64,000 nt of DNA from an uncultured Thermoanaerobaculia bacterium (GCA_951812325.1 OX638294.1:1138527-1202526); one strand, 5' to 3'. Shown: positions 19,026 to 40,443, numbered from the stretch's first letter. A program made the numbers and translations. The notes: generated from the sequence alone by a model not told the origin.

Positions 19026-19110
19026 ACGCGCCAGGCAGCCGCTCCAGACGGGTGGCAGTCCGGGACCGCTCTCGCCTCGATTCGCGGGCTCTTGCCACGG
19101 GCTGCCTAAG

Positions 19111-21077
19111 CCGAAGTTCTTGAGCTTCTGCGGCCCCGTGATGGTCGATAGTCGTTGCCAGGCTTGGGTTTGCGGGTTGTTGGCCGGTCGTTCGGGGGCG
19201 CATATCGTAGCCATGTAAAAATGAGAGAAGAGGTAGACAGTCACGACGATCTAGAGTACAATGCGAAGCCATGTACATCGAGAGCATACGCAACCGGAAC
19301 TCGCCGCCTGCCGTCCTGCTTCGAGAGTCCTACCGCGAGCACGGCAAGGTCAAGAAGCGCACACTCGCCAACCTCTCCAAGTGGCCGGACCATCTCGTCG
19401 AGGGGCTGAGGACCCTCCTCAGGGGCGGCGTCGCACTGCCGTCTCTCGATGCCGCCTTCGACATCGTCCGCGCCAGACCGCATGGACACGTTGCCGCCAC
19501 GCTCGGCGCCGCCAGACGGGTCGGTATCGAGCCCTTGCTCGACCGGAGGCGGTCGAGACAACGCAGCCTCGCGACCGCGATGATCGCCGCGCGCATCCTC
19601 GATCCCCGGTCCAAACTCGCGACCGCGCGAGGACTCGCGTCCGAAACGATCACTTCGACCCTCGGTGAAGAACTCGGTGTCGAGGAGGCGTCGGCCAGCG
19701 AGCTCTACGAGGCGATGGACTGGCTGCTCAAGCGGCAACCGCGAATCGAGCGGCGCCTGGCCAAGCGCCACCTCGAGGAAGGAGCCCTGGTCCTCTGCGA
19801 CCTGACCTCGGTCTACTTCGAGGGCTCGTCCTGCGAGCTTGCCGTGCACGGGTACTCCAGAGACCGCAAACGGGGCAAGGTGCAGATCACCTTCGGCCTG
19901 CTCTGCAACCAGGACGGCTGCCCCGTGGGGGTCGAAGTCTTCTCGGGCAATACCGCGGACCCCTCGACAGTGGCCGCGCAGGTGCACAAGCTCAAGGAAC
20001 GCTTCTCGCTGGACCGGGTGGTCATGGTCGGCGACCGCGGCATGATCACCGATGCGCGCATCAGGGAGGACCTCGACCCCTCCGGACTCACGTGGATCAG
20101 CGCCTTGCGGGCGCCGGCGATCCGCTCCCTGGCCGAACAGGGCCACCTGCAGCTGTCTCTCTTCGACGAGAGAGGCCTCGCCGAGATCAGCGCTCCGGAG
20201 CTCTTCCCCTCAGAGCGGCTGATCGCGTGCAGGAACCCCCTGCTGGCCGACGAACGCGCCCGCAAGCGCCAGGAACTGCTCTCCTCCACCGAGGTCCAGC
20301 TCGAAGCCATCGTCAAGGCCACACGGCGCCAGAAGAACCCCTTGCGCGGCAAGGTCAAGATCGCCGCACGCGCCACGCGCGCCCTCGACCGCTTCAAGGT
20401 CGCAAAGCACTTCGAAACCGAGATCGAGGACGACAGCTTCAGCTATCGCCGCAATCAGGCACGCATCGACGAGGAAGCCGCACTCGACGGCTTCTACATC
20501 ATCCGCACCAACGTCCCCGAGGACCAACTGACCGCGGCCGATGCCGTGCGCTCCTACAAGAGCCTCAGCCGCGTCGAACGCGCCTTCAGGAGCCTGAAGA
20601 GCGTCGACCTCAAGGTGCGGCCCATCTACCATCGACTCGACGACCGGGTACGCGCCCATGTCTTCCTGTGCATGCTCGCCTACTACGTCGAGTGGCACAT
20701 GAGGCGCGCACTCGCACCCCTGCTCTTCGACGACGAAGACCACGACCACAACACCCGATCACCCGTCCTGCCCGCCCGCAGATCGGCCACCGCCATGGCC
20801 AAGGTCAACTCAAGGCGAACCACCCACGGATTCCCCGTACACAGCTTCCAGACACTCCTCGCCGACCTCGCCACGCTCACACGCAACCGGGTCCGAATCC
20901 AGCAAGCCGGCGACTCCACTGCCGATCTGCTGGCCACGCCAACACCTCTTCAGAACCAGGCCCTCAAACTCCTGGGCGTGAAACCCTGAGGACACGTACC
21001 CAGTAGGCTGCAACCCCAAATCGACGAAAAACCCCACCACTACAGGGGATTCCTCGATTCCGCGCCGAGAACTTCGG
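19111..21077 (+). mobile_element. IS1634-family (IS4 superfamily) insertion sequence, about 1.96 kb, with imperfect terminal inverted repeats and a target-site duplication
   Basis: Left end CCGAAGTTCTTGAGC and right end GCCGAGAACTTCGG (reverse complement CCGAAGTTCTCGGC) are flanked by a duplicated CCTAAG / GCCTAAGCC (6-9 bp; the exact boundary is ambiguous). The uninterrupted target GGCGGCCTAAGCCGGAATCAGGTCT is present in the paralogous locus at about 26310-26336. Confidence 0.8.
19271..20989 (+). CDS. IS1634-family DDE transposase
   Basis: 572 aa. MYIESIRNRNSPPAVLLRESYREHGKVKKRTLANLSKWPDHLVEGLR is the hallmark N-terminus of IS1634/IS1549-type transposases. The DDE region is downstream. Confidence 0.9.
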   Translation: MYIESIRNRNSPPAVLLRESYREHGKVKKRTLANLSKWPDHLVEGLRTLLRGGVALPSLDAAFDIVRARPHGHVAATLGAARRVGIEPLLDRRRSRQRSLATAMIAARILDPRSKLATARGLASETITSTLGEELGVEEASASELYEAMDWLLKRQPRIERRLAKRHLEEGALVLCDLTSVYFEGSSCELAVHGYSRDRKRGKVQITFGLLCNQDGCPVGVEVFSGNTADPSTVAAQVHKLKERFSLDRVVMVGDRGMITDARIREDLDPSGLTWISALRAPAIRSLAEQGHLQLSLFDERGLAEISAPELFPSERLIACRNPLLADERARKRQELLSSTEVQLEAIVKATRRQKNPLRGKVKIAARATRALDRFKVAKHFETEIEDDSFSYRRNQARIDEEAALDGFYIIRTNVPEDQLTAADAVRSYKSLSRVERAFRSLKSVDLKVRPIYHRLDDRVRAHVFLCMLAYYVEWHMRRALAPLLFDDEDHDHNTRSPVLPARRSATAMAKVNSRRTTHGFPVHSFQTLLADLATLTRNRVRIQQAGDSTADLLATPTPLQNQALKLLGVKP

Positions 21078-21089
21078 CCTAAGCCGGAA

Positions 21090-21914
21090 TCAGGTCTGGA
21101 CCATCGTCTCCAGGTAGACGCCCTCGAGATCCGCCTGATCCAGGGCCTCCCGATCCAGGATGCGCTCCATCCTGCCCTTGCGCATGATGCCGACCCGGTC
21201 GCAGAGACTCTGCGCCCGGAGCAGGTCGTGGGTGCAGATCAGGATCGCGGCGCCGTCGCAACGCATCCCGTCCAGCAGGGTCAAAAGGTCCGCTGCCGCC
21301 TTCGGATCGAGACCTGACGTGGGTTCGTCCAGGAGAATCGCGGGCGCGCTGCGAATCACCGCCACCGCCAGACCGACACGCTGACGCATGCCCTTCGAGA
21401 ACCGGTCGACGCGCCGATCAAGGACATCCTCGGCCAGCCCCACACGAAGAAGCGCCTCGCGAACGCGGTCCCTGGTCGGCGACACTCGCTGGCCCACCGC
21501 GCTGAAGAACTCCGCGTTCTGCACCGCGGTCAACGCCGGGTAGAGGGCCACGTTCTCGGGAATGAGGTCGAGGCGGCGCTTTGCTCTGCGAGGCTCGCGG
21601 GCGACCTCGATCCCGTCGATCAGGGCGCGGCCACCCGTGGGTCGGATGAAGTCGAGGAACATGTTGATCGTCGTCGTCTTGCCGGCGCCGTTCGGCCCCA
21701 TCATGCCGAGAATCTCTCCCGGCGCCACTTCGAAATCCACGCCGTCGACGGCAAGCGTGTCGAACAGCATCATCGGTACACGCTGCTCGTATGGAACGGA
21801 AACGATCGTCGGCTCCAGCAGCACGCCTTCCTGATGGCCGCGAACGGTCTTGAGGCTGACGATCGTGCCGACGGCAGCTCCGCCCGTCTCGCGGCGCGTC
21901 CTCCCGCTCACCAA
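21090..21914 (-). CDS. Chimeric ABC transporter ATP-binding protein (copy A). The ATPase lacks its native N-terminus and is fused to a fragment of the periplasmic-protein gene; possibly a pseudogene
   Basis: From AVDGVDFEVAPGEILGMMGPNGAGKTT to the C-terminus it is identical to the ATPase at 26337-27071. Residues about 17-50 (IVSLKTVRGHQEGVLLEPTIVSVPYEQRVPMMLFD) match an internal segment of the 27068-28606 protein. Walker A/B and the signature motifs are intact. Confidence 0.6.
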   Translation of the reverse strand: MVSGRTRRETGGAAVGTIVSLKTVRGHQEGVLLEPTIVSVPYEQRVPMMLFDTLAVDGVDFEVAPGEILGMMGPNGAGKTTTINMFLDFIRPTGGRALIDGIEVAREPRRAKRRLDLIPENVALYPALTAVQNAEFFSAVGQRVSPTRDRVREALLRVGLAEDVLDRRVDRFSKGMRQRVGLAVAVIRSAPAILLDEPTSGLDPKAAADLLTLLDGMRCDGAAILICTHDLLRAQSLCDRVGIMRKGRMERILDREALDQADLEGVYLETMVQT

Positions 21915-21935
21915 TCGCGAACCGGCCGCGGACGG

Positions 21936-23393
21936 TCATCGGCAGTCATAGCGCTGAAAGCGCAGGAAGGTGAACGCACCCGCCACGCCGACGAAGAGGA
22001 GCATCCACAGCTGGTCCTGAAGCGTCTGGGCCGCCAACTCCGCCGTGCTCGGCGGTCGCCAGACAAACCGGGGCATCTCGTCCGCGGGCGCCGGCACCTC
22101 CGAGTAGTCCAGCGTGCTCAGTGCTTGCAGCACGTACTCCTCGCCATCGTCGTCGGTCACAATGGCCTTGGCGCCGCTCCGGAACGCCGCCTCCCGGTGC
22201 AACTGGCGTTGGTTCAGCACGAAAGACGTGAACACCGGCTTGAACCCGGACAACTGGCGACGGAACTCCCTCCGCCCGGATGAGCCGGTAACCGCCAAGC
22301 GGTTCATCGCGCCGCGCACGAGAGTGTGGGGCGACAAAACGCCCCAACGATCGATCCACTCCTCCTGGGCGGCGAATTGCAGCAGATGCTGGCTGCGCAG
22401 CTCGGCATAACCCTCCTCCCTTTCCCGCAGGGCTGCTTCCTGGTCGACCCACATCTTCGACTCGAGATCCCGGATCCGGCGACGTTTCTCGGCGGAGGAA
22501 ATCTCTGGCGTGCGAACGATTTCCTGAAGCGGCATGGAGGAAACAGCCAGCCGCATTCGGTAGGCCTGCTGGTGAACGGAGATGTTCCGCTGGAACGTCA
22601 TCTCCGATTCGACCGGATGAAACACAGAGGCCAGAACAACGATGAGCCCCGGCACGGCCAAGGCCAGGAGCGACCATGCGCCGACCGCCCGCTGCAGAGC
22701 GGACTCGGGCATCGACGTACTCACCGAGGCCGCCATCCCGAGCAACACGTTGAAAAGCAGGAACACGACAAACTGCACCACGGCCAGGACCAGAACCAGC
22801 CCCTGCGAGGCAGTCGGAAGCAGACCACCGCCGATCACGGCAACCGCGAGTCCCGCGAGGACGCCGAGCACCAGGGATGCGGACACGACAAGGAAGCAAG
22901 CCAGCATCTTGCTCAGGATGAGTGGTACGCGCCCCGTTGGCCGACTCGCCAGGACCCGCAAGGTTCCGGCAGCCTTCTCCCCCGCCACCGCATCGAAACT
23001 CAGGGCTACCGCCATCAAGCTGTAGAAGAAGATGACGACCGCCGTCCAGTCAAGCGGTTCGGCGGCAAAGAGAAACGAGCGATCGGAAACCTCCGTCTCG
23101 AACACGTCGACGAGATGCGGACGAACGACTGCGGCTTCGCCCCACTGCTCCCTGGACCCGCCGCGCAGGAAACCCAGGGAAGGAGCCGGTCTGGGGACGA
23201 CGACCCGTTCCAGATTCGCGGTGCTCTCTGCCTTGTGCGCCAGCCGCGACCAACTGGAGCGCAGCTCCCGAACCTCGTCAAGGTGAATCAGCGTCGCGGC
23301 CACGATCAGCAGAGGACCGGCAACGAACAGCACCAAAAGCCGATAGCTGCGGAGGTACCTCGCGAGCTCCCAGCGAATCAGATGACCGAGCAC
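21936..23393 (-). CDS. ABC-2-type transporter permease with a large extramembrane domain (copy A, large permease; DUF3526-like)
   Basis: 485 aa, hydrophobic helices at both ends, paralogue of 28606-30060 (about 50% identity by eye). Tightly linked to the ATPase. Confidence 0.65.
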   Translation of the reverse strand: MLGHLIRWELARYLRSYRLLVLFVAGPLLIVAATLIHLDEVRELRSSWSRLAHKAESTANLERVVVPRPAPSLGFLRGGSREQWGEAAVVRPHLVDVFETEVSDRSFLFAAEPLDWTAVVIFFYSLMAVALSFDAVAGEKAAGTLRVLASRPTGRVPLILSKMLACFLVVSASLVLGVLAGLAVAVIGGGLLPTASQGLVLVLAVVQFVVFLLFNVLLGMAASVSTSMPESALQRAVGAWSLLALAVPGLIVVLASVFHPVESEMTFQRNISVHQQAYRMRLAVSSMPLQEIVRTPEISSAEKRRRIRDLESKMWVDQEAALREREEGYAELRSQHLLQFAAQEEWIDRWGVLSPHTLVRGAMNRLAVTGSSGRREFRRQLSGFKPVFTSFVLNQRQLHREAAFRSGAKAIVTDDDGEEYVLQALSTLDYSEVPAPADEMPRFVWRPPSTAELAAQTLQDQLWMLLFVGVAGAFTFLRFQRYDCR

Positions 23394-23419
23394 GCCCGCC
23401 TACCCGCCACCGCTTCGGC

Positions 23420-24676
23420 TCAGCAAACGTCCAGACGTTCAAGACCGACGCCAGCCGCGAGCAGCAGCGCGACGGTCCCGAAAGCGAGCGCTCCTGCCGG
23501 AAGGCTCGCCTGACGTAGGGAACTGCCGATGGAGACCGACTCGTGAACCGGCTCCGGCAAGCCCCCGATGTCGAGCGGCTCACCGTAAACCGACCGTTTC
23601 TCTCGCTCCGGGTAAAGAGCGAGTTTGCCGGCTTGCCAGGCAATGAAGGACCTCTCGGCCGAGTCGACCTGGCGCCGAAAGTGCTCGTGATCGGCGGGCG
23701 AGGTACCTGCCAGCACCTGACCGCCATCGAGAAAGGCGGTAAACGGCAGCAGCACCGCCAAGCGCCGGTAGTACCGATACGCCATAACCTGAATGTTCCG
23801 CCCCGCCATCGAGCGGTTCCGGTCCTCCTCAAGGTTCTCAACCCCGGCAACGACAGACGCCGACGCCACCGGAACGGTCGGCGCCAGCCGGGATGCCGCC
23901 CACCCGGCAAGCTGTGGGTAGAGCGCCGCAGAAAACGCCCACACCAGGACCCCCACCACGAGCGAGGTTTCCACCTGCCTGCAGACGACGGACAGCAGCA
24001 GAGAAAACGCCAGCCAGAAACAGCCGTAGAGCGCGACCAAGCCAAAGAAGAACCCTGCCCGCCACCACTCTTCCCCTTCCAGAGGCGGGCCGGCTCCGGT
24101 CGCCGCCCACACCAGAAAACCAAGCAACAACATCGAACACGGCAGGACCACGGTCAGCACGCCCCCGACGAACTCGCCCGTCAGCAGGGTCGACCGCGGC
24201 AGCCCTCTGGCCAGCTGCTGCTTGAGCGTGCCCTTCTCACGCTCGCCGTTGACCACCGCATGGCCGGCGACCAGGCATGAAAAGCCGAACACCAGCGCCA
24301 GCACCCACGCCAGATCCACGTTCAGGCGCCGCGCATCCTCCACCACCGGCCGATCCCGCCGCGTGATCCGAGGCTCACCAAACCGACCCGGAATCGCAGC
24401 CCTTGATCCCAACTGCTCTCCCACGCCTCGACTCAGGAGGCTGAGCACCGCCGGAGGCCGCTCCAGGCCAAGCTCGAGTTGCATGTAGACCTGAGCCCTC
24501 TCGAAAGACATCTGGCCGGCCAGACGGCTGGCCTCGAATAATCGAACCCGTTCCTGATAGTCGATCCAGGAAACCTGGACGGTTGCGCCAACCATCACGG
24601 CGCCAACGGCCCAAGTCCCCAAGAACCAACCGTTCTGCAGGCTCAGCCTGAGTCGCTTGAGCGCAACAATCCACAT
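23420..24676 (-). CDS. ABC-2-type transporter permease (copy A, second permease)
   Basis: 418 aa membrane protein, paralogue of 30067-31329 (MWIVALKRLRLSLQNGW.. versus MLRIALKRCRLSARSGW..). Confidence 0.65.
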   Translation of the reverse strand: MWIVALKRLRLSLQNGWFLGTWAVGAVMVGATVQVSWIDYQERVRLFEASRLAGQMSFERAQVYMQLELGLERPPAVLSLLSRGVGEQLGSRAAIPGRFGEPRITRRDRPVVEDARRLNVDLAWVLALVFGFSCLVAGHAVVNGEREKGTLKQQLARGLPRSTLLTGEFVGGVLTVVLPCSMLLLGFLVWAATGAGPPLEGEEWWRAGFFFGLVALYGCFWLAFSLLLSVVCRQVETSLVVGVLVWAFSAALYPQLAGWAASRLAPTVPVASASVVAGVENLEEDRNRSMAGRNIQVMAYRYYRRLAVLLPFTAFLDGGQVLAGTSPADHEHFRRQVDSAERSFIAWQAGKLALYPEREKRSVYGEPLDIGGLPEPVHESVSIGSSLRQASLPAGALAFGTVALLLAAGVGLERLDVC

Positions 24677-24767
24677 GGCCCTCAGTCCGCAGACGCCCCT
24701 CCCAAACCCCGGATCCCCAGCAACGGACCAAACTCGCAGGCTCTCTGGGGTTGACCCACTGAGTGGA

Positions 24768-25865
24768 CTACCGAATCCAGTCCGTCACCGGCGGAAGTTC
24801 TGCCCGCCAAAGCGACGAAAAACCAGTAAACCAAGCGACGCCATCCGCAACCGAGACGGATCCGAAACTGGCCTGGGCGCCGCGCTGCCTGAGAATCCCG
24901 AGCTGGCCTCCGGTCGGAGACAGAACGTACAACTCGCGGCCCCCTACAAGGCAGAAAACGAGGCCCGTCCGCGAGTCAACAGCCACACCCGTCAGCATGG
25001 GAAGCGCGTTGATTCCGTCGGTCGCCAGGTTCTCGGTGATCCAAGGCGTCCAGGCTTCCCGCTCTTGCATCGCCACGCCCATCAGGTCGCCAATAAGCCG
25101 ACCCCGAAGACGTGTCTGAAACTCAAGTTCCCCGTCAACCGAGTACCGAGAAACGACAGGAGCCGCCGTGAACGCTGCCACCAGGGCATCGGACGGCGCG
25201 ACCGCCATGACGACGCGGTTCAGTCGCACGGCGAAGCGCCGGTCTCGGCAGCGGCTGTGTTGATCGCAATCAGGATACACATCGCCCGGCCTCAGGAGTT
25301 CCCCGATCAGAAGTTGCCTGTCGCCGAGTGGCGAGTAGCGCACGATTACCGAACCTTGGCGAGGTTGATTCAGAAACATCCGGCCCTTTGAGTCAAGCGC
25401 AATCGAATAGCTGTGCCAAGCTTCGGCGTCGTCCGGCGTCGTTCCCTGCAAGACGGTGTCCAGAGAGCCACCGGTCCGAAGGGAATAGCCGTGGATGGAC
25501 ATCAGACCGGCGGTCGAAACCAATCGTACCGTATCCGCGCTTCCGACAGCGAAATCCATCGGAAAGCGCATCTCTCCCGGCCCCTGTCCGACGCGGCCGA
25601 GCTGCCGCTTGATCGCGCCAGATGCATCAAGATCAAGCAGGCGATGGTTCAATCGCTCCAGCAGGAGAAAACCATCATCATGAGGCGTCAGACGATAGGC
25701 GCCATTCACCGTCAGATCTTCAAAGACGCGAACCGGCTCAAAGGTTCCTTCCGGAACCTCTTCTGTTTCTTCTGACGCCGACGCAACCCTCGCCACAACA
25801 AACAGACAAAGTGACGCAAACGCCAAAAGAATGATGCGGCGCGCGCTACTGCCTGTGAGCATTTG
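24768..25865 (-). CDS. Secreted hypothetical protein (beta-propeller-like)
   Basis: Signal peptide MLTGSSARRIILLAFASLCLFVVARVASA chosen as the start, because the longer ORF start overlaps the upstream gene. No diagnostic motif. Confidence 0.45.
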   Translation of the reverse strand, partial: QMLTGSSARRIILLAFASLCLFVVARVASASEETEEVPEGTFEPVRVFEDLTVNGAYRLTPHDDGFLLLERLNHRLLDLDASGAIKRQLGRVGQGPGEMRFPMDFAVGSADTVRLVSTAGLMSIHGYSLRTGGSLDTVLQGTTPDDAEAWHSYSIALDSKGRMFLNQPRQGSVIVRYSPLGDRQLLIGELLRPGDVYPDCDQHSRCRDRRFAVRLNRVVMAVAPSDALVAAFTAAPVVSRYSVDGELEFQTRLRGRLIGDLMGVAMQEREAWTPWITENLATDGINALPMLTGVAVDSRTGLVFCLVGGRELYVLSPTGGQLGILRQRGAQASFGSVSVADGVAWFTGFSSLWRAELPPVTDWIR

Positions 25866-26163
25866 GCACCTCCAGTTCGTCTTCAATCGTCGACACCGCC
25901 TGCACCCGGCGGTGATACAGCAGAATCCCGAGACCTCCGCCGAACCCATGTTCAGCAGCCACATTCTGCCGGCCTTCGGAACTTTCAACTCTCCAGTCCG
26001 GCATCCGCTCGCCGTAAACCGCTACGGTCCCCGAAGGGCGCAGCATGTAGAACAACCAAGCGACGCTGACTAACGCACTCCCTACGACAAGCCCGCCGAC
26101 CAAGGACTCGCGCCAAGGGAACTTGTGACGGGGTCTGGCGTGGGGCATACGGTACTCAGCCAC
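25846..26163 (-). CDS. Small single-pass membrane protein, hypothetical
   Basis: 105 aa with one TM helix (LVGGLVVGSALVSVAWLFYML). Its stop overlaps the downstream start, suggesting translational coupling. Confidence 0.35.
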   Translation of the reverse strand: MAEYRMPHARPRHKFPWRESLVGGLVVGSALVSVAWLFYMLRPSGTVAVYGERMPDWRVESSEGRQNVAAEHGFGGGLGILLYHRRVQAVSTIEDELEVPNAHRQ

Positions 26164-26336
26164 TTGACTACAACGGTCGAGGAAGCCACGAGAAGGTCTG
26201 AGAAGAGAGTCTAGGGTCGGAGGCCTTCACCTGTCAAGTGCCAGAGCTGTCCAGCGTTCGGCGTTGCCCGGCTGCTGTTCGCTTCGTGACGAGGCCTCGA
26301 TTCGCGGACTCTTGCCGCGGGCGGCCTAAGCCGGAA

Positions 26337-27071
26337 TCAGGTCTCGACCATCGTCTCCAGGTAGACGCGCTCCAGATCCGCCTGATCCAGGGCCTCCCGA
26401 TCCAGGATGCGCTCCATCCTGCCCTTGCGCATGATGCCGACCCGGTCGCAGAGACTCTGCGCCCGGAGCAGGTCGTGGGTGCAGATCAGGATCGCGGCGC
26501 CGTCGCAACGCATCCCGTCCAGCAGGGTCAAAAGGTCCGCTGCCGCCTTCGGATCGAGACCTGACGTGGGTTCGTCCAGGAGAATCGCGGGCGCGCTGCG
26601 AATCACCGCGACCGCCAGACCGACACGCTGACGCATGCCCTTCGAGAACCGGTCGACGCGCCGATCAAGGACATCCTCGGCCAGCCCCACACGAAGAAGC
26701 GCCTCGCGAACGCGGTCCCTGGTCGGCGACACTCGCTGGCCCACCGCGCTGAAGAACTCCGCGTTCTGCACCGCGGTCAACGCCGGGTAGAGGGCCACGT
26801 TCTCGGGAATGAGGTCGAGGCGGCGCTTTGCTCTGCGAGGCTCGCGGGCGACCTCGATCCCGTCGATCAGGGCGCGGCCACCCGTGGGTCGGATGAAGTC
26901 GAGGAACATGTTGATCGTCGTCGTCTTGCCGGCGCCGTTCGGCCCCATCATGCCGAGAATCTCTCCCGGCGCCACTTCGAAATCCACGCCGTCGACGGCA
27001 AGCGTGCCGTCCTCGAACCTCTTCGTGAGTCCGATTGCCTTGATCACTGTCGACTCTCCAATGTGGGTCAG
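26337..27071 (-). CDS. ABC transporter ATP-binding protein (copy B, intact)
   Basis: IKAIGLTKRFEDGTLAVDGVDFEVAPGEILGMMGPNGAGKTT (Walker A), LSKGMRQRV signature, and ILLDEPTSGLD Walker B. The start is taken as the TTG/GTG just after the upstream gene's stop; the ORF track's longer start at 27152 overlaps that gene. Confidence 0.85.
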   Translation of the reverse strand: MTHIGESTVIKAIGLTKRFEDGTLAVDGVDFEVAPGEILGMMGPNGAGKTTTINMFLDFIRPTGGRALIDGIEVAREPRRAKRRLDLIPENVALYPALTAVQNAEFFSAVGQRVSPTRDRVREALLRVGLAEDVLDRRVDRFSKGMRQRVGLAVAVIRSAPAILLDEPTSGLDPKAAADLLTLLDGMRCDGAAILICTHDLLRAQSLCDRVGIMRKGRMERILDREALDQADLERVYLETMVET

Positions 27072-28606
27072 CGTCGGCTGAGGAGGATGCCGCCCCGGAT
27101 CAGCGCCGCGAGCAGCGCCACCACGGCAGCCAAAAGAAGCAACGCCAGCCACGGATTGCGGGCTGCCGTCACGTGAATGCGAACTGTCTTGGGATCGCTC
27201 TCCACCAGACGATCACCAGCCAGCGTGCCGACGACGATCGTCCCTTCGTAGTCCCCCAGGATCACGTCGGCGGGCGGCGCAAGCGTCACGTTGACCGCTT
27301 CGCCGGTGCCGGGGGCGAGCGCATCGAACAGCCGCGGTTCCGCTCCCACCCGCCAACCGAACGGCGCCTCGACAACGACTTCCACCTGCTCGAGATCCAG
27401 ACTGCCCGCATTGACGATCCTGACTTCGAACGAGCCGGTATCGCCGCGCAGAATCTCCTGGTAGAGGTTCGCCGCCTCGACCTCGAGCGCGGCGACACCG
27501 CGCGGAATGAGCTCCAGATCCAGCCTGCCCCCGCCTCCGGCCGCGTCACGGTCGGGCTCGAACAACACGGAGAACGGAATCGACGTGCCCGGCTGCACCG
27601 CAGCCGTCGGTCGACTCGGCAACGTCAGCGCCAGACGCAGACTGCGGCTGGTCACCCCCTCCGACAGGAACATCTGACTGAACGTCGCCTCGGTCTCGGG
27701 ATCAAAGAGCCGCGCCGCAACTTCGGGCGGAAGACCCTCAAGCCGCACTCCGTACGTCGCGTCATCGACGTCGAAGCGCTCCACCTCAAGGACGAACTCG
27801 GCCTCTTCACCCAGTTCAGCGTCCAGGGCAAGCTGAGCGGAACGCACGACCAAGGGTTCCTCGGCGCCGGATCGCTTGCCCAACAGGACCTGTCGATCGT
27901 GGGTCTGATGATTGTAGCGAAGCTCGACGAGCAACTCCTCGACATCGGCCAGAAGAAGTCCGAAGTCGACGGTGGTCGGTTCGTCGAACAGCATCATCGG
28001 TACACGCTGCTCGTATGGAACGGAAACGATCGTCGGCTCCAGCAGCACGCCTTCCCGATGACCGCGAACGGTCTTGAGGCTGACGATCACGTTCGATACG
28101 CCGGTCGGAAGCGGCAGGTCCAGCAAACCGCCCGACTGCTGCTCGACCACTTCCGCCTCGACGCCGGAGGACCAGCGCGCCACCAGCTCCAGTTCGACAC
28201 GGGCCTCGCCGTCGGGCCGCCTGTACTTCCGGGCCGCGCGCAGGACGACCTCGGGATCCGCCGCGATCATCTCCAGATAGGCTTGTGCCAGATCGAGATC
28301 CGCGAGCCTGAGCTGCGCTTTCTCCGTATCCAGCTCCGCCTCGGAGAGCAGCTCGTTCTCGAACAGCTCCTCGGCGCGACCGAGCTGCTTCTCGGCTTCC
28401 TCGTACCTGATCCGGGCAGCCGCGTACTCGAGGCCAAGCCGACCCGAAGCCTCCGTCTGACCAGGCGCCGGCCCCGCCGCCGCGACGATCAGGAGGGCGG
28501 TAGCGGCCAGGCCCGCGAAACCGTCCCGGCGCCGCCTGAACCTGGCGGGCCAGGCCGCCTGGGGCCTGGCGGTAGCGGCGGCCGTTCGATCAAGAGCGGC
28601 GGGCAT
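27068..28606 (-). CDS. Periplasmic protein with N-terminal coiled coil, beta-sandwich-like repeats and a C-terminal TM anchor (component of the transporter locus)
   Basis: About 512 aa from the MMPAALDR start. There is an N-terminal signal/TM segment, a coiled-coil stretch (EEAEKQLGRAEELFENELLSEAELDTEKAQLRLADLDLAQ), and a C-terminal hydrophobic helix (WLALLLLAAVVALLAALI). It is absent from copy A apart from the fused fragment. Confidence 0.55.
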   Translation of the reverse strand: MPAALDRTAAATARPQAAWPARFRRRRDGFAGLAATALLIVAAAGPAPGQTEASGRLGLEYAAARIRYEEAEKQLGRAEELFENELLSEAELDTEKAQLRLADLDLAQAYLEMIAADPEVVLRAARKYRRPDGEARVELELVARWSSGVEAEVVEQQSGGLLDLPLPTGVSNVIVSLKTVRGHREGVLLEPTIVSVPYEQRVPMMLFDEPTTVDFGLLLADVEELLVELRYNHQTHDRQVLLGKRSGAEEPLVVRSAQLALDAELGEEAEFVLEVERFDVDDATYGVRLEGLPPEVAARLFDPETEATFSQMFLSEGVTSRSLRLALTLPSRPTAAVQPGTSIPFSVLFEPDRDAAGGGGRLDLELIPRGVAALEVEAANLYQEILRGDTGSFEVRIVNAGSLDLEQVEVVVEAPFGWRVGAEPRLFDALAPGTGEAVNVTLAPPADVILGDYEGTIVVGTLAGDRLVESDPKTVRIHVTAARNPWLALLLLAAVVALLAALIRGGILLSRR

Positions 28607-30060
28607 CATCGGCAATCGTAGCTTGCGAAGCGCCGGGCGACCCATCCGGTTGCACCCGCCACGAAGAGCACCATCCATAGAACGTCTCCCACCGTCTGGT
28701 TCACCAGTTCTCCCGGCGATGGCCGGCGCCAGGCGAACCGCGGCCCCTCGCCGGGCCGTATCGGGAGCGCCGCGTAGGACAGGCCCGTGATCCCGCGCAG
28801 TCGGTATTCCTCGCCCTCCGCGTCCTGGATCAAGGCCATCGCCACGCCTTCGCCCGCTTCATCGCGTCGCTGTCGTCTCTGGTCGATCACGAACTCGGTG
28901 AAGGTCGGCTCGAACCGGTCGACCTGCCGCAGGAACTCCCTCTCGCCGCTCCACCCGGCAAAAGAAAGCCGATCCAGCGAGCGGCGCAGCAGACTGAACG
29001 GCGAGAGAGCGCTGAACTTCTCCGTCCATGTCCGTTGCGCCGCCGACTGGCGCAGATAGTCGCGACGCACTTCCGCCAGGGCTCGCTCCTGCTCCGCCAG
29101 GGCGGCTTCCTGATCCGCCATCATGTCGGCTTCGAGTGACGCGATCCGGGCACGCTTCTGAGCCGGCGAGAGGTCCTCCCTGTTCACGATCCCGGCGAGC
29201 GCCTCAGACGAGACCGAGAGCCGTTCCCGGAACTCCATGGACACGAGCCCGAAGTTCCGCTGCAGTTCGGCCTCCGATTCCAGCGGATGGAGCATCGAGC
29301 CCGCCACCGTGACGCCGGCCGGCACGACCAGCGCCAGAACCGTCCAGGCGCCCAAAGCCCTCTGCAGCGCGGCCGCCGGTCGAGCGACGCTGACCGATGC
29401 GGCCACTCCGAGCAGCACGTTGAACAGGAGAAACACGAGCACCAGCATGACCGCCAGGACAAGGTTCGGAGCTGTCTCGGCGGAAAGGGAGCCGCCCCCG
29501 TCAACCGCGACCACGGCAAGCGAGGCCACCGCACCGAGGACGAAGGAGAGGGCGACGACCAGGAAGCTGCCGGCGATCTTGCTCAGGATGAGCGACATGC
29601 GCCCGATCGGTCTGGCTGTCAACACCCGGAGGGTTCCCTGGGCCTTCTCGCCCGCCACCGCATCGTAGGTCAGAGCCACGGCCATCAGGCTGTATAGAAG
29701 GACGACGACAGCGGCCCAGTCGAGAGGCTGGGCGACGAAGACCCACGACCGCTCGGAAACACCCGGAATGACAGGCGCCGCCAGGTGGGGCCGCAAGACG
29801 GTTGCCTCCGTTCGATCGGCGCCGTCGGCCGAAACGAAACCCAGAGTCGGGTACGGCCGCGGCAGGAGGACCCAGTCCAGATTCGCGTCGCTCTCCGCAG
29901 ACCGGGCGAGACGCGAGTAGGCGGACACCTGCTCCCGCAGGTCGATCTGGTGGATCGTCGCGGCGACGACCATGCACAGGGGGCCCGCCACGACCGCCAG
30001 CAGCAGCCTGTAGCTCTTGAGATGGCGAGTCAGTTCGCCAAGAACCAGGACACGGAACAT
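28606..30060 (-). CDS. ABC-2-type transporter permease with a large extramembrane domain (copy B)
   Basis: 484 aa, paralogue of 21936-23393. Confidence 0.65.
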   Translation of the reverse strand: MFRVLVLGELTRHLKSYRLLLAVVAGPLCMVVAATIHQIDLREQVSAYSRLARSAESDANLDWVLLPRPYPTLGFVSADGADRTEATVLRPHLAAPVIPGVSERSWVFVAQPLDWAAVVVLLYSLMAVALTYDAVAGEKAQGTLRVLTARPIGRMSLILSKIAGSFLVVALSFVLGAVASLAVVAVDGGGSLSAETAPNLVLAVMLVLVFLLFNVLLGVAASVSVARPAAALQRALGAWTVLALVVPAGVTVAGSMLHPLESEAELQRNFGLVSMEFRERLSVSSEALAGIVNREDLSPAQKRARIASLEADMMADQEAALAEQERALAEVRRDYLRQSAAQRTWTEKFSALSPFSLLRRSLDRLSFAGWSGEREFLRQVDRFEPTFTEFVIDQRRQRRDEAGEGVAMALIQDAEGEEYRLRGITGLSYAALPIRPGEGPRFAWRRPSPGELVNQTVGDVLWMVLFVAGATGWVARRFASYDCR

Positions 30061-30066
30061 CGTTCT

Positions 30067-31329
30067 TCAGACCCCCGCCTCGGTCAGGTCCAGCTTCTCG
30101 AAGCCGATCACGCCGCCAACCAGCAGAAGGGTCGTGAAGAGCGAAAGCGCGCCAACCGGGAGTGCCGCGCCACGGAGCGAAGCTTCGACCGGGAGCGGAC
30201 GATACTCCGGCGCCGGCAGACCTCCGATGTCGAGAGCCTCCTGGCCGCTGTGCATCGTGTTCTCGCGCTCAGGGTAGCGCTCCAGTTTCTCCGCCTGCCA
30301 CGCGATGAATCTTCTCTCCACGTCGTCCACATCGGCGAGAAACGCGATGTGGTCATCAACGGATGTCGTGGCCACCAGCCGCGCAGCCTCCTGGAATGCG
30401 GTGACCGGGCCAAGCGAGGCCAACGTCCGGTACCGCATGTACTGCTCGGCCCGCACGTTGCGCCGGGTGCGAATCGCCGCACGCCGAGCGGCCACGTCCC
30501 GGTCGGCCGACGCTGCCGCGGCTTCCAGCGCAGGCGGCGCTGCGCGCGTAGCCGCCCAACCCGCCAGAGGCTGGTAGAGCGCGGCCGAGGACACCCAGAT
30601 CAGGATGCCGACCAGAAGCGACGTCTCCCGCTGCCTGAGGAAGACCGAGAGACACAGGGAAAGAGCCACCCAGAACGCGCCGTAGAGAGTCGCAAGGCCG
30701 AAGAACAGGAGAACCCGAAGCCACTCGCGACCGTCCAGCGAAGGACCAGCCGTGGCCGCCCAGGCCAGAAAGCCGAGGCAGAACAGCAGCAGCGGAATCG
30801 CCACGACGATCAGGCCGCCGAGGAACTCGCCAAGCAGCAGGTGCGGCCTCGGCAGACCGCTTCGGAGCTGGAGCTTGAGCGTACCGGCCCGTCGCTCGCC
30901 GTTGATCACGCCGTGACCGGCGAAGACGCCGGTGAAGCCGAGCACCAGCGCGAAGGTCCAAGCCAGATCCGCGTTCAGTCGCCGCGCCGCACCCGTTCGC
31001 GGCCGGTCGCGCCGCGCAAGCTCGGGCTCGCGATAGCGGCCCCTGATCCTCGCGCTCACGCCGAGATCCTCACCGACCCCTCGGCTGATCAGGCTCAGCG
31101 GCGTCGGCGGCCGCTCGAAACCGATCTCCACGCCGACGTACACCGTGGCGTCCTCCGCCTTCACCCGCTGAGCGATCCGGTTGCCTTCGAACAGATCAAC
31201 GCGCTCCCCGTAGCCGATCCACCCGACCCAGACCGTAGCCGCCGCCAGCGCAGCGCCCACGGCCCAGGCGCCAAGCAGCCAGCCGCTCCGGGCACTGAGA
31301 CGGCAGCGCTTCAGCGCGATTCTCAGCAT
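30067..31329 (-). CDS. ABC-2-type transporter permease (copy B, second permease)
   Basis: 420 aa, paralogue of 23420-24676. Confidence 0.65.
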   Translation of the reverse strand: MLRIALKRCRLSARSGWLLGAWAVGAALAAATVWVGWIGYGERVDLFEGNRIAQRVKAEDATVYVGVEIGFERPPTPLSLISRGVGEDLGVSARIRGRYREPELARRDRPRTGAARRLNADLAWTFALVLGFTGVFAGHGVINGERRAGTLKLQLRSGLPRPHLLLGEFLGGLIVVAIPLLLFCLGFLAWAATAGPSLDGREWLRVLLFFGLATLYGAFWVALSLCLSVFLRQRETSLLVGILIWVSSAALYQPLAGWAATRAAPPALEAAAASADRDVAARRAAIRTRRNVRAEQYMRYRTLASLGPVTAFQEAARLVATTSVDDHIAFLADVDDVERRFIAWQAEKLERYPERENTMHSGQEALDIGGLPAPEYRPLPVEASLRGAALPVGALSLFTTLLLVGGVIGFEKLDLTEAGV

Positions 31330-31753: not shown

Positions 31754-32752
31754 TCAGCCGCCCGACGTCCCCGCCGCCCTGGCGGCCGCCTCGGCTTCCG
31801 CGTCCTCCGCCCGGGCGCCGCGAAGCAGGTTCAACATGCCGTAGTTCCCCTCGTGGCAGGCGTACTCGAACATCGGCAACGGGTTCCTCGTCATCGGCAC
31901 GACGGCCGTCCACCGTCCGGTGAAGGACTCCGGATCGTCGATCGTGTACTCGTAGACGAGCCGGTCCTGCTCCACGCGGGTGAACCTCTCGGTCAGGCGC
32001 ATGTTCGGGCCCGAACCCCGGAAGCTCGTCTGGTCGGTGAAGTTCGTCGTCACGACGACCAGGGTGTCCCCTTCCCAGTGGCCTCGCGAGTCGCCCCGCC
32101 ACTGGCGGACGTCCTCGGGCAGCGGGGAGCGTCCGTCGAGCGGCACGATGCGCGAGTCGTGCACCATCTCGACCAGCAGCGCGACCGTCTCCTCGGTCTG
32201 GAAGATCTGGACGTTGTTGTTGTACGCACTCGGACTCATCGGCGGCCCGGCGTTGAAGCCCAGGATGCACCGTTCGGCGACGCCGCGGTCCTCGGGCCCG
32301 TGGGCGGGTCGGCGGCGCGCCGCGGTGCGCTCGGCAACCCGTTGCTTCGCCGCCTGGGTCAGCTCGGGAATCCGGCCGTCCGGCGGATCGACGACGAGCG
32401 ATGTGCGCCGATCCTCGGTCAGCTTGTCCCCGTAGTCCCACCAGAACTGGTTGTAGGCGTTCGCCACGTCCGCCTGAGCCGAGAGACCGTCCTCGGTGCG
32501 CCGGTCCTTGTTTCGCCGCGCCAGCGTCCGCTGCTCGAACTCCGCCGCCTCTTCGCCGCTGAACCGCTCCTGCTCGCCCAGCTCCTCCGGACGCTCGAGC
32601 GGCGTGATCGTCCGGAAGTCCCAGACCCCGCGCAGGTCGGGCGCGCCCCAGGGAGTGCGATCAAGCTCCGGCGCGCCTTGTTGCGCGGCGAGGGGAGTTC
32701 CAGCCAACACGACGATGGCGAACACTGCGATCGGCGTCTTGCGTTTGCCCAT
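31754..32752 (-). CDS. Secreted protein of unknown function (paralogue family A, member 3)
   Basis: Signal peptide. GHWEGDTLVVVTTNF, LVYEYTIDDP and FEYACHEGNY motifs are shared with 3740-4825. Confidence 0.6.
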   Translation of the reverse strand: MGKRKTPIAVFAIVVLAGTPLAAQQGAPELDRTPWGAPDLRGVWDFRTITPLERPEELGEQERFSGEEAAEFEQRTLARRNKDRRTEDGLSAQADVANAYNQFWWDYGDKLTEDRRTSLVVDPPDGRIPELTQAAKQRVAERTAARRRPAHGPEDRGVAERCILGFNAGPPMSPSAYNNNVQIFQTEETVALLVEMVHDSRIVPLDGRSPLPEDVRQWRGDSRGHWEGDTLVVVTTNFTDQTSFRGSGPNMRLTERFTRVEQDRLVYEYTIDDPESFTGRWTAVVPMTRNPLPMFEYACHEGNYGMLNLLRGARAEDAEAEAAARAAGTSGG

Positions 32753-32783: not shown

Positions 32784-34160
32784 CTACCCGGCGGACGGCG
32801 GCTCGCCCGTCAGCAGGGACCGGTCCGGCGGCCGGCAGAACCAGATCGACGCCGCGCCCAGGACCGCCAGGGCAGCGAGGGTCCAGAGCGTGCCGGCATA
32901 GGAACCCGTTCGATCCGCCGCGGCGCCGGCCAGGGCCGGCCCGAGAGCGCCGATCACGCCGATCAGGGCGAGCCGGACGCCGGTCGTGCCGACGAACGCC
33001 GCCCGCCCGAAGAACCAGCCGAACACGACGACTTCACTCGTGTAGGCCGCGCCGTAGGCAGCGCCGATCACGACCACGCAGGAATACGCGACGACCGCGG
33101 AGGTCGCCGACACGAAGACCAACAGACCGACAGCGTTGACCAGCAGGGCCAGCGCGAGGACCCGCGTCGGCGCGATGAAGTCGCCCAGCGAGCCGCTCAG
33201 CCGGCCGAACAGACTGGCGCCCACCCGGAAGCCCAGGATGCTCGACACGGCCAACGTGGTGAAGCCGAGGTCTTCCAGATGGAGGCCGCCGTGAGCGGTT
33301 ACGACTCGCCACGGCACGGTGTTCGCCGCCGTCGCGAAGGTGGCGATCCAGAACTGGGGAGTGCGCAGAGCGCGCAGGACGGCGCCCTTCGGCGCCGACT
33401 TGTCGGCCGCTTCGCCGCGGCTCCCCACCGGCCGCGCCCCTGCCCGCCGACCCGGACCGCCAAAGTCGCCGGGTGCGCCGGCCATCTGGCCGGCTTCCGC
33501 GAAGGAATGCGCCGCATCCGGACCGCCGGCCTCGACCGGCGCCAGTCCGTCGCGACGCTGGCCGATGTCGCCAGGCTGGTTGCGGATGAAGAGCACGGCG
33601 ATCACCGCGACGAACAGCGAGATCCCGGCGACGATCTGCCAGCCGACCCGCCAGTCCCACGATTCAAGGACGAGCCCGGCCGCCGGCGACCACAGAAAGC
33701 CGACGATCGCGGCGCCGGTCAGGATGATCGCCGTCGCCCGCGCCCGATACCTGCGAAACCAGAACACCGGTATCGCCTGGGCGGGCAGCAGCGTCGAGAA
33801 ACCGATCCCGATGCCGCCGACGAGCGAGTAGCCGACGTAGAGCTCGGCCGCGCTCTCCGCCTGGCTCACCAGCCAGAAGCCGCTGGCGGCGCACAGCGCG
33901 CCCGCGGTCACCGTGGCCCGGATGCCCCAGCGGCGGATGACCGCCGCCGCAACCGGACTGACCAGGCCGTAGGCGAAGGTGAACGCCCCGAACATCTGGC
34001 CGATCTGCTGGCGGGTCAGCTCCAGATCGGCGATCAGCGAGGAGGCGAAGATGCCCAGGCCGTAGTAAGCCGGGGCGATTCCCAGGCCGTAGGTCACAAA
34101 ACCCACGGCGACCATCGGCCAGCCGTAGAACCTCCGCCCTGATCCGGGCGAAACGGTCAA
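32784..34160 (-). CDS. MFS transporter
   Basis: 458 aa with a 12-TM pattern and a cytoplasmic loop in the middle. Typical MFS organisation. Confidence 0.75.
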
Positions 34161-35197
34161 ACCGCCAGGTCCCCGGCCTGGCCGGCGCCGGCGGCGGGCG
34201 GCGAAGAATCAGGGTACAGGTGGCAGGCGACGCGGGCCGGGCCGACCGCCTCGAGCAGAGGCTCCACGCGATTGCAGTGGTCGAGCGCCTTCGAACAGCG
34301 CGGGTGGAAGCGGCAGCCGGACGGCGGGTTGCGGACGCTCGGCACTTCACCGGCGATCAGGTGGTGCGCCCTCGCCGCCTCGACCACCGGATCCGGCGTC
34401 GGTACGGAGGCCAGGAGCGCCTCGGTGTACGGATGCCTCGGCCGCTCGAACAGCTCGTCCCGCGTCGCGATCTCGACGATCCGACCGAGGTACATCACCC
34501 CGACCCGGTCGCTGATGTGGCGCACGACGGACAGGTCGTGGGCGATGAACAGGTAGGTGAGACCCAGCTTCGCCTGCAGGTCCATCAGCAGGTTGAGCAC
34601 CTGCGCCTGAATCGAGACGTCGAGCGCCGACACCGCCTCGTCGCAGATCAGCAGATCCGGCTCGAGCGCCAGAGCCCGGGCGATGCCGATCCGCTGGCGC
34701 TGGCCGCCCGAGAACTGGTGCGGGTAGCGGTTGGCCATCGACGGCAGCAGGCCGACCAGGTCGAGCAGTTCCGCGACCCGCTCCCGGAAGCGGCGGCGAC
34801 TCCCCGCCACGCGGTGGACCTTGAGCGGTTCGCCGACGATCTCCCGCACCCGCATCCGCGGATTGAGCGACCCGAACGGATCCTGGAAGACCATCTGCAT
34901 CCGCCGGCGAAGCGGCCGCAGCCGGCGCTGGCTGGCCTCCGAGATGTCCTCGCCGTCGAAGACGATGCGGCCGGCCGTCGGTTCCAGCATGCGCAGGATC
35001 GCCAGCGCCGTCGTCGACTTGCCGCAACCGCTCTCCCCCACCAGGCCGAAGGTCTCGCCGCGCCTGAGATCGAACGACACCCCGTCGACCGCCTTGACGG
35101 ATCCCGTCCGCCGCCGCATCAGCACCCCTTCGGTGACCGGGAAGTGGACCTTGAGATCCTCGACGCGAAGCAGCACCCGGTTGGCGGCTGAACTCAC
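34157..35197 (-). CDS. oppF: Oligopeptide/dipeptide ABC transporter ATP-binding protein OppF/DppF-like
   Basis: [14 protein letters not shown].., Walker [18 protein letters not shown], and a C-terminal oligopeptide-ABC domain (CRFHPRC). The start is the GTG that overlaps a TGA inside repeat copy 1. The ORF track's longer N-terminus (to 35689) is frame-incompatible junk. Confidence 0.8.
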
Positions 35198-35534
35198 GGC
35201 GCGGATTCCGCCTCGTAGCCGTAACAGGCCCAGGCCCGCGAGCCGGCGGCGGCTTCGAGCGACGGCGGCGCCGCCAGGCAGCGATCGTGCGTGTACGGAC
35301 AGCGCGGCGCGAAGGCGCATCCCGCGGGCAGCGCGGCGAGGTCCGGCGGTTGACCCTCGGCGGCTGAACTCACGGCGCGGATTCCCCCTCGTAGCCGTAA
35401 CAGGCCCAGGCCCGCGAGCCGGCGGCGGCTTCGAGCGACGGCGGCGCCGCCAGGCAGCGATCGTGCGTGTAGGGACAGCGCGGCGCGAAGGCGCACCCCG
35501 CGGGCAGCGCGGCGAGGTCGGGCGGTTGACCCTC
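35183..35534. repeat. Tandem direct duplication, 2 x 176 bp (about 97% identical), spanning the oppD 3' end and the oppF start junction
   Basis: GGCGGCTGAACTCACGGCGCGGATTCC... occurs at about 35183 and again at about 35359. The copies differ at only about 5 positions. Copy 2 holds the true oppD C-terminus. Copy 1 holds a duplicate 57-aa C-terminal fragment plus the oppF GTG start. Confidence 0.85.
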
Positions 35535-36362: not shown

Positions 36363-36398
36363 GACGGGTCAGCCGCCCTCACCGGAAGCAGGCCGCCA

Positions 36399-36479
36399 GG
36401 CAGCCCGTGGCAGAAGTCGCGCTGCATTCGAGCGGCCAAGCATCCCGCCCGGCATCGTTGCTCCTCGGTCGAACATGGC
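36399..36479. repeat. About 80-bp conserved element (copy 1), in the oppA-oppD intergenic spacer
   Basis: GGCAGCCCGTGGCAGAAGTCGCGCTGCATTCGAGCGGCCAAGCATCCCGCCCGGCATCGTTGCTCCTCGGTCGAACATGGC is nearly identical to 40444-40524. Confidence 0.8.
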
Positions 36480-38356: not shown

Positions 38357-38360
38357 GACG

Positions 38361-39257: not shown

Positions 39258-39264
39258 GCCGCGC

Positions 39265-40215: not shown

Positions 40216-40443
40216 GTAAGGCGTCAGAGAATACAGGTGCGCGGAACCTGTCGGGGACGCCGGCGTCCCCGAAGGGCGACAGATGCCCGGTCAACCTCCG
40301 CCAACAGCGTGCTCGCCCATGCCCCAACTCCGCTTCGTCTCCGGCGCGCAGCCTCGCTGGGGGCCTTCTCCCGCGGGCGATGCGCCTGTCAACTCAAGGA
40401 CTCGGCCCCGACTTCGGAATGGCTCTGATCCTCAATGGCCCTG

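Follow-up and report, generated by a model that had tools for sequence, protein, structure and literature searches.

What do two sets of ABC-2-type permease genes do beside an ATPase and a large periplasmic protein, and could their product carry a substrate beyond the outer membrane? The question is raised by a 64,000-nt stretch of DNA from an uncultured Thermoanaerobaculia bacterium (GCA_951812325.1 OX638294.1:1138527-1202526; G+C 65–72%), hereafter the window. A run of minus-strand genes there, with the third-position G+C (GC3) bias typical of real genes, encodes permeases B1 and B2, periplasmic protein B3 and ATPase B4 (copy B), permeases A1 and A2 and a chimeric ATPase A3 (copy A), and, between the copies, a secreted protein, M1, and a possible small membrane protein, M2 (Table 1). 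A first-pass annotation made from the sequence alone had placed an export module at 23420–31329. The genes it described were all found and show the GC3 bias of real genes, although its range omitted A2 and A3, and the corrected extent is 21090–31329. We propose, tentatively and at somewhat less than an even chance, that the product of the locus is an ATP-driven exporter of the ABC-2 class (type V, NosY-like) and of tripartite type, with a new, non-canonical periplasmic adaptor architecture.

The evidence that carries this proposal comes from B3, previously described as resembling no canonical membrane-fusion protein (MFP) or substrate-binding protein; in a single decisive part, its α-hairpin, it does resemble an MFP. 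The AlphaFold2 model of B3 (predicted local distance difference test 80.6; predicted template modelling score, pTM, 0.45) contains a hydrophobic N-terminal helix, a hairpin of helices 51–83 and 89–115 (~ 30 residues each), about four β-sandwiches and a C-terminal transmembrane (TM) helix. The β-sandwich and the C-terminal TM anchor of the first-pass annotation were both recovered, the former as Pfam NEW3/NPCBM_assoc (PF10633; 43.9 bits against a gathering threshold of 24.4, E = 2.8e-11, residues 411–482 of the 536-aa open reading frame, ORF), the latter by hydropathy and as model helix 485–511; residues L509, R511 and R512 were invariant across 18 homologues. The hairpin was matched by the NCBIfam model RND_mfp (TIGR01730) at 9.4e-6, and a profile of whole-length B3 found the TriAB adaptor in PDB (6vej) at 0.0024. 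A profile of the hairpin only, built from 41 diverse family members, was then aligned to PDB and retrieved 25 sequences at E < 1, 23 of which were periplasmic adaptor proteins: TriAB (1.3e-5), MexJ (1.6e-4) and MacA (2.4e-4), followed by BACEGG_01895, AcrA, EmrA, MexA and ZneB, with E-values from 1e-5 to 5e-2 for TriAB, MexJ, MacA, AcrA, EmrA and MexA. No generic coiled coils were retrieved from PDB by this profile. A single-sequence phmmer search of PDB with the hairpin from the window gave no matches, only the family profile being sensitive enough.

The tip of the hairpin carries a second likeness to known adaptors. RxxxLxxxxxxS is the 'RLS motif' of the TolC-binding tip in MacA, AcrA and MexA, with an RLT form in HlyD (PMC3391258). 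In the HMMER alignment, the R, L and S positions of the B3 family fall on MacA R131, L135 and S142, and across 136 family members the arginine was present in 62%, the leucine in 91% and serine or threonine in 79% (S 68%, T 11%), with an intervening glycine in 61%.

The orientation of B3 depends on its N-terminus. This is probably a cleaved Sec signal peptide, because the N-terminal hydrophobic segment usually ends in an AxA-Q-like site across the family. After cleavage, mature B3 would be held in the membrane by its C-terminal anchor, and the sandwiches would form a stalk with the hairpin at its distal tip; this would be the functional layout of a membrane-fusion protein, in linear form and made of different domains. 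Some family members are longer (718–797 aa), and in the one examined, from locus L032 (loci of relatives are numbered with L, their proteins with P), the extra length is a duplicated sandwich domain, as would suit a stalk whose length can be adjusted.

A full HMMER profile search yielded 1876 cluster representatives of the B3 family, 237 of them at E ≤ 1e-30 and mostly full-length (480–520 aa), which puts the family at no fewer than 237 clusters; a word-indexed protein search, which returned 20 relatives, badly understated its size. Hosts, where named, were Thermoanaerobaculia, Bacteroidota, Latescibacterota and Handelsmanbacteria, all diderm phyla. Database entries are named 'hypothetical' or 'NEW3 domain-containing protein', some bearing the automated IMG label 'AcrA (membrane-fusion protein)'. 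No characterised member was found, and the literature search returned no papers on DUF3526, PF12040, or NEW3 proteins as ABC partners, in keeping with the first-pass view of a conserved, functionally undescribed system. The terms NEW3, ABC-2, YbhG, immunoglobulin, C-terminal transmembrane and non-canonical do not occur in a 2026 review of adaptors.

A gene for a TolC-family outer-membrane efflux protein (OEP) lay within 8 kb in 10 of the 27 family loci with enough flanking sequence, corresponding to three of ten lineages at 60% identity. In L032/L033 the gene order is ATPase, B3, OEP, LuxR and four permeases; the OEP gene thus sits inside the operon, and no resistance-nodulation-division (RND) or MFP gene is nearer than 10 kb. 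In L044 (10001–14087) a 779-aa B3-like gene is directly followed by an OEP gene; no ABC permease or ATPase gene was found within 10 kb of it, and the adaptor-like protein may also pair with partners encoded elsewhere.

All four permeases matched ABC2_membrane_2 (PF12679, gathering threshold 27.2 bits) with 80.6 bits for B1 (E = 1.6e-22), 74.4 for B2, 76.8 for A1 (2.2e-21) and 66.6 for A2 (2.7e-18), the E-values of the four ranging from 1e-18 to 1e-22. DUF3526 (PF12040, threshold 25 bits), assigned to all permeases in the first-pass annotation, was confirmed in B2 (35.9 bits) and A2 (40.8 bits, E = 4.6e-10) and stayed below threshold in B1 (17.2 bits) and A1 (16.9 bits). In the B2 model the DUF3526 region, lying between TM5 and TM6, forms a 54-residue helix, return helices and a β-hairpin; no solved structural counterpart was found for it, and by the positive-inside rule and ABC-2 topology it would be periplasmic. 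Hydropathy gave five TM segments in B1 at the threshold used, with an extramembrane segment of ~ 135 aa before the last, and six may be assumed by analogy with B2. B1 shares 50–54% identity with its homologues in L001, L004 and L005. Both ATPases matched Pfam ABC_tran (B4 at 1.5e-29); the best NCBIfam match of B4, at 1.8e-56, was the DrrA subfamily, under the cut-off of that model.

The genes of copy B are closely spaced. Overlapping stops and starts, reported earlier for the whole copy, occur only at the B2/B3 junction (ATGATG), the B1/B2 and B3/B4 gaps being 6 and 20 nt. B4 most likely starts at GTG 27047 rather than at 27152, which would give a 271-aa ORF, because a GGAGAG ribosome-binding site lies 8 nt 5′ of this GTG; homologues of B4 are 236–248 aa long. 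For M1, ATG 25862 is the most likely start, giving 364 aa with a signal peptide. Promoter and terminator scanning was uninformative: it returned a single sigma-70-like site at 26208–26237, upstream of M2/M1, and terminator-like sites were no commoner than expected from shuffled sequence.

Each family locus has one B3 gene and, where transporter genes are included, a single ATPase gene. ABC2_membrane_2/DUF3526 permease genes vary in number, from two in L001, L004, L005, L012 and L045 to five to seven in L002, L007, L008, L010, L020, L027 and L030; L002, L007, L008 and L010 are distant members with the permease genes in tandem. Odd numbers (five and seven) suggest that not all permeases act as fixed heterodimer pairs. 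The window fits this pattern: it has four permeases, and just one adaptor and one ATPase are intact. The permease pairs named as 'two paralogous loci' at first pass are indeed paralogous, and the whole is better described as two permease pairs on one adaptor and one ATPase, the norm in relatives. B3 genes overlap permease genes in relatives as they do in the window, and there are proteins in which a permease is fused to the C-terminal half of a B3-like protein (P0139, 892 aa); both observations favour a physical coupling of adaptor and permease.

The arrangement that we envisage is as follows. B1 and B2 would form a heterodimer beneath an ATPase dimer; B3, its N-terminus cleaved, would stand as a stalk with a C-terminal inner-membrane anchor and a distal hairpin, a linear analogue of a membrane-fusion protein; and the hairpin would dock on a TolC-family channel encoded elsewhere in the genome. 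As in MacAB-TolC, the pump would pick up its substrate in the periplasm or from the outer leaflet and drive it out across the outer membrane. Alternative permease pairs would share a single adaptor and a single ATPase, with A1 and A2 borrowing B3 and B4.

Among described systems, MacAB-TolC is similar in pairing an ABC transporter that has sizeable periplasmic parts with an adaptor whose RxxxLxxxxxxS hairpin tip docks a TolC-family channel (here, as proposed). It differs in its permease, which has the FtsX fold with the MacB periplasmic domain (type VII), features that the permeases of the window lack. The only described class combining an ABC-2-type permease heterodimer with a membrane-fusion-type protein is YbhGFSR, with YhiI-RbbA-YhhJ, of E. 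coli (PMC7190983). B4 scores on the RbbA model at domain level. However, YbhG and YhiI are canonical HlyD-family adaptors, YbhS and YbhR are ABC2_membrane_3 permeases with the periplasmic domain between TM1 and TM2, and YbhF is a double ATPase, whereas here it is TM5 and TM6 that flank the large loop, the 236-aa ATPase contains just one nucleotide-binding domain, B3 falls outside the HlyD family and ABC2_membrane_3 is a weak secondary match only.

We hold the exporter reading at its tentative level because the link to a channel consists of motif-level homology and two distant lineages, and it is further limited because NosY, the closest solved relative of the permeases, is a mechanotransducer rather than a pump. 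Several other points weigh against it. B3 lacks the lipoyl (biotinyl-like), β-barrel and membrane-proximal domains and does not match an adaptor model as a whole protein; it is these domains that allow canonical adaptors to build hexameric funnels. Its inter-domain arrangement is uncertain in the model (pTM 0.45), and the arginine of the motif, found in just 62% of members, is missing in the OEP-linked protein of L032. If the N-terminus were not cleaved, the hairpin, 45–50 Å long, would be kept beside the inner membrane with TolC out of reach. In the largest OEP-linked clade the OEP gene is part of an adjacent TetR-OEP-MFP-RND operon, so the adjacency may reflect synteny only and counts for little. 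No OEP gene was detected in the window when an OEP hidden Markov model was run against all ORFs of at least 80 aa, nor within 8–10 kb in any locus of the window's own clade. This genome provides no evidence for a substrate.

Several of these points agree with an alternative that we consider unlikely, in which the system would be a mechanotransducer resembling NosDFY and nothing would cross the outer membrane. ATP-driven motion of the permeases would pass through the DUF3526 helices to B3, whose sandwiches would be active at the cell surface or in the periplasm, for instance by loading, maturing or presenting M1 or a cysteine-rich peptide (see below). NosFY, in the study behind PDB 7o0y, reportedly drives its periplasmic partner NosD instead of moving a solute; the permeases here have the NosY-type fold, and NosY is by far their best structural and sequence match. 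The dedicated periplasmic partner gene that overlaps a permease gene, the lack of an OEP gene near the locus in the window's clade, and the NEW3/CARDB-type sandwiches, typically binding or scaffold modules, are all in line with such a role. It leaves unexplained, however, both the adaptor-like hairpin with its TolC-binding motif and the OEP genes directly after B3 genes in L032/L033 and L044, and the wider family shows no conserved enzyme that might be the client. NosY also differs in being a homodimer-forming protein of 276 aa with no DUF3526 insertion, whereas the permeases here are two distinct proteins (420 and 484 aa); B3 shows no similarity to the β-helix of NosD, and NosDFY has no adaptor-type hairpin. 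No nosZ, nosL or nosR context was found by Pfam among the larger neighbouring ORFs scanned. With neither a NosD partner nor a nos cluster, membership of NosDFY itself was rejected.

The gliding-motility system GldAFG is similar in that an ABC-2 permease and its ATPase occur with an accessory membrane protein that is large and has a periplasmic domain. Membership was rejected on scores (14–24 bits against a cut-off of 288.5 for GldF, 139 against 402.6 for GldA) and on the lack of a GldG/ABC_transp_aux match in B3. NosDFY and gliding-motility systems were examples that the first-pass annotation had given of characterised families a match to which would refute it, and the comparison by Pfam, NCBIfam and structure placed the locus in neither.

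With regard to what the proposed exporter might carry, the genes next to copy A are informative. M1, earlier described as lying between the copies, is no spacer there: it proved to open the copy-A-type operon, a position that is conserved. A profile built from M1 together with its homologues found NHL six-bladed propellers in PDB (Thin NHL domain 1.1e-12, TRIM71 4e-11), while Pfam gave a weak match to DUF5128. Homologues with ~ 51–54% identity (52% in L001 and L004, 51% in L005) lie directly 5′ of permease 1 in L001, L004/L006, L005 and L043, which assigns M1 to the copy-A operon. M2 had no Pfam or NCBIfam match and one TM segment by hydropathy; the only homologue found for it precedes the M1-like gene of L001 (42% over 67 aa, E = 1.5e-8).

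In these relatives M1 and permease 1 are separated by a small gene whose product has a Sec-type signal peptide and then ~ 31 residues, six of them cysteines, e.g. ...SSCTSTNGAAVCGGPGLCCTAGPNWCAEWECDY. The order M1, peptide, permease 1, permease 2, B3 and ATPase is kept in L001, L004/L006, L005 and L043. The peptide family comprised four clusters among 5.8 billion proteins and had the same M1–permease 1 context in every locus examined. Its pattern is C-x7/8-CGG-x-G-x-CC-x-AG-x3-C-x3/4-C, the L005 copy having an altered C-terminus. Neither tblastn nor a regular-expression scan returned more than noise for the peptide gene in the window, where M1 and A1 are 91 nt apart, and on this comparison the window has lost it. 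The ancestral operon of the clade would thus have encoded a secreted NHL propeller and a six-cysteine Sec peptide as clade-specific additions, the peptide being the most likely cargo, or else an agent against which the pump protects. A possible parallel is enterotoxin STII, a peptide with disulphide bonds that Sec delivers to the periplasm and MacAB-TolC exports from there.

The second of these roles leads to another improbable alternative, immunity or expulsion of the LanFEG/PmtCD type. The pump would clear an amphipathic or cysteine-rich antimicrobial peptide, self-made in the relatives and foreign here, from the inner membrane or periplasm with no outer-membrane channel, and B3 would be an accessory like LanH/LanI or a peptide-binding shield. 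The genes of the window would then be 'orphan immunity', which would explain their persistence and duplication after the loss of the peptide. However, LanFEG, PmtCD and SagGHI are monoderm systems without an adaptor-like partner, and NCBIfam scores for such systems were far under the cut-offs (130 bits against 309.75 for the LanFEG ATPase model TIGR03740). Pfam scans of the neighbours found no lantibiotic genes, and no bacteriocin biosynthesis or modification genes, near the locus. The permease-B3-ATPase core is widespread, but the peptide and M1 occur in a single small clade only, and the adaptor-like hairpin and the OEP adjacency again remain unexplained.

The proposal that A1 and A2 share B3 and B4 raises the question of how copy A came to lack its own. 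Amino acid identity between the pairs was 51–53% (A1/B1 53%, A2/B2 51%; ~ 71% at the nucleotide level), and on this divergence they are old paralogues. A1 is 62–65% and A2 62–63% identical to the orthologues in L001/L005. Being closer to single-copy genes elsewhere than to B1/B2, and with the upstream gene kept, copy A is therefore, on sequence comparison, the orthologue, and copy B either was acquired or is a paralogue that has diverged. No M1-like gene was found upstream of copy B; the 332-aa ORF there (31754–32752) is unrelated to M1 and accompanies an MFS gene in relatives.

The chimeric nature of A3 noted at first pass was confirmed by two near-identical repeats. Positions 21075–21759 match 26322–27006 of copy B, i.e. 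most of the ATPase gene and its 3′ flank, at 99.4%, and 21759–21864 match 27983–28088, in the middle of B3, at 98%, with six mismatched positions over both repeats. A3 consists of 35 codons from mid-B3 joined in frame to the ATPase from codon 15 onward, across a deletion of 976 nt with GTCGACGG microhomology near the junction. Because these near-identical repeats contrast with the old paralogy of the permeases, A3 is regarded as a recent copy of the B3–B4 region with an internal deletion. Its start is weak (TTG/GTG only), the ancestral ATGA start at the A2 stop now opening a different frame, and by comparison with the ABC ATPase fold the 14 missing codons would include the first β-strand and the A-loop aromatic residue.

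An apparently intact insertion sequence (IS) sits in the 3′ flank of A3, with AAGTTCT... terminal inverted repeats, a ~ 10-bp target duplication (GCCTAAGCCG) and a 572-aa transposase matching Pfam DDE_Tnp_1 at 7e-14; its flanks (19074–19113 and 21075 onward) are collinear with copy B from 26294 onward. The exact B2 protein is present on a 610,741-bp contig, ptg000223l, a name that presumably follows hifiasm long-read assembly naming. Given the six repeat mismatches and this contig name, an assembly artefact is unlikely as the source of the chimera; the clean junction and the IS with its duplicated target in the A copy only were likewise taken to reject it.

The closest relative found, L003 (82–93% DNA identity), is a low-coverage assembly in which a ~ 2.4-kb deletion joins the 5′ end of B1 to mid-B3 in a B-type locus (L003:10001–11452, P0013). 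Instability of the region in this lineage is clear, the locus either recombining or decaying. The AraC and GroEL neighbours of L003 are differently arranged. Another neighbour, a diphthamide-synthase-like PP-loop ATPase (Diphthami_syn_2) fused to an AraC-type helix-turn-helix (17952–19025 in the window), is conserved beside the ABC locus in L003, L004 and L006.

That the system is simply being lost here, with part or all of it non-functional and its arrangement a product of recombination and IS activity, would account for the truncated, weakly started A3, the deletion of most of the A adaptor gene, the adjoining IS, the lost peptide gene and the L003 deletion, but is quite improbable in view of B1–B4, which have kept intact reading frames, normal codon bias, conserved motifs and translational coupling, and of A1 and A2, which are full-length and 62–65% identical to their orthologues, a pair that loss of the A copies need not disable, since in relatives one ATPase and one adaptor routinely serve several permease pairs.

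If B3 does dock on an outer-membrane channel, as the exporter reading supposes, it would represent a second, independently built type of adaptor; to our knowledge, all described tripartite pumps share one adaptor architecture (hairpin, lipoyl, β-barrel and membrane-proximal domains), and ABC-2 transporters are seldom regarded as envelope-spanning machines. The ABC-2 class and the principle of hairpins docking on outer-membrane factors are already known; their combination and the adaptor architecture would be new, with the key mechanistic step being one that we infer. DUF3526 and the ABC-2-associated NEW3 proteins of many uncultured diderm phyla would thereby gain a first function, and the pump would display a modular design in which several alternative permease pairs operate on one ATPase and one adaptor. 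The six-cysteine peptide of the close relatives offers a concrete, testable candidate substrate. Should the channel link fail, the family would still provide a new case of a NosFY-like engine with a dedicated periplasmic partner.

A wider claim, possible but less likely than not, is that B3 typifies an unrecognised class of 'linear' adaptors with a Sec-cleaved N-terminus, a distal RLS hairpin, a variable Ig-like/NEW3 stalk and a C-terminal anchor. In Acidobacteriota, Bacteroidota, Latescibacterota and related diderm phyla, such adaptors would connect TolC-family channels with arrays of NosY-like ABC-2 permease pairs that bear DUF3526 helices in the periplasm, and in Thermoanaerobaculia the pump would be dedicated to a Sec-delivered six-cysteine peptide and its NHL-propeller partner.

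Table 1 Features of the ABC-2 module in the window, and six-cysteine peptide genes in related loci
Feature	Position	Strand	Size or description
B1, ABC-2 permease 1 of pair B	30067-31329	(-)	420 aa
B2, ABC-2 permease 2 of pair B, DUF3526 insertion between TM5 and TM6	28606-30060	(-)	484 aa
B2 periplasmic (predicted) helical insertion, DUF3526	28693-29301	(-)	residues ~254-456
B3, adaptor-like protein: probable signal peptide, alpha-hairpin, ~4 beta-sandwiches including NEW3, C-terminal TM	27068-28606/28609	(-)	512/513 aa
B3 alpha-hairpin	28262-28456	(-)	residues 51-115; homologous to periplasmic adaptor protein hairpins
RLS-type motif, B3 hairpin tip	28343-28378	(-)	R77-x3-L81-x6-S88, 'RAEELFENELLS'
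NEW3/NPCBM_assoc beta-sandwich of B3	27233-27448	(-)	Pfam PF10633
B3 C-terminal TM anchor, conserved ...L(S/T)RR end	27074-27154	(-)	hydropathy and AlphaFold2 helix 485-511
B4, ABC ATPase	26337-27047	(-)	236 aa from GTG 27047
M2, possible small single-TM protein, membership uncertain	25846-26163	(-)	105 aa
M1, secreted NHL-repeat six-bladed beta-propeller	24768-25862	(-)	364 aa; full ORF 24768-25988
A1, permease 1 of pair A, intact	23420-24676	(-)	418 aa
A2, permease 2 of pair A, intact, DUF3526	21936-23393	(-)	485 aa
A3, recombinant ATPase remnant	21090-21914	(-)	35 B3 codons fused to ATPase
IS element just downstream of A3	19114-21074	(+)	transposase 19271-20989, 572 aa
Six-cysteine peptide genes of relatives	L001:6885-7085, L004:886-1068, L006:856-1038, L043:8001-8150, L005:~5050-5230		

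Outside the module, Pfam searches of the larger neighbouring ORFs identified GroEL, AraC, MFS, Opp, M16 peptidases, VWA proteins and PQQ dehydrogenases. Overlapping minus-strand ORFs of an Opp-type ABC ATPase region (34157–35689 and 35370–36362) contain 177 nt (59 codons) duplicated in tandem and in perfect register (35183–35359 and 35359–35535, 97.7% identity). Direct repeats of 84 nt (36396–36479 and 40440–40523, 97.6% identity) bracket an oligopeptide-binding protein gene, the one ORF of the group scanned against Pfam, and two further minus-strand ORFs (36497–40215), presumed to be Opp permeases. Further along, two adjacent paralogous large proteins with C-terminal VWA_2 domains (41608–44328 and 44349–46559; DNA identity 71% over ~ 600 nt) are preceded by a 382-aa ORF with no Pfam match. 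Finally, the gene at 49305–52067, for a leucine-rich-repeat protein of 920 aa, contains internal repeats of ~ 390 nt that are 79% identical in DNA, which is unusual in a bacterial genome.

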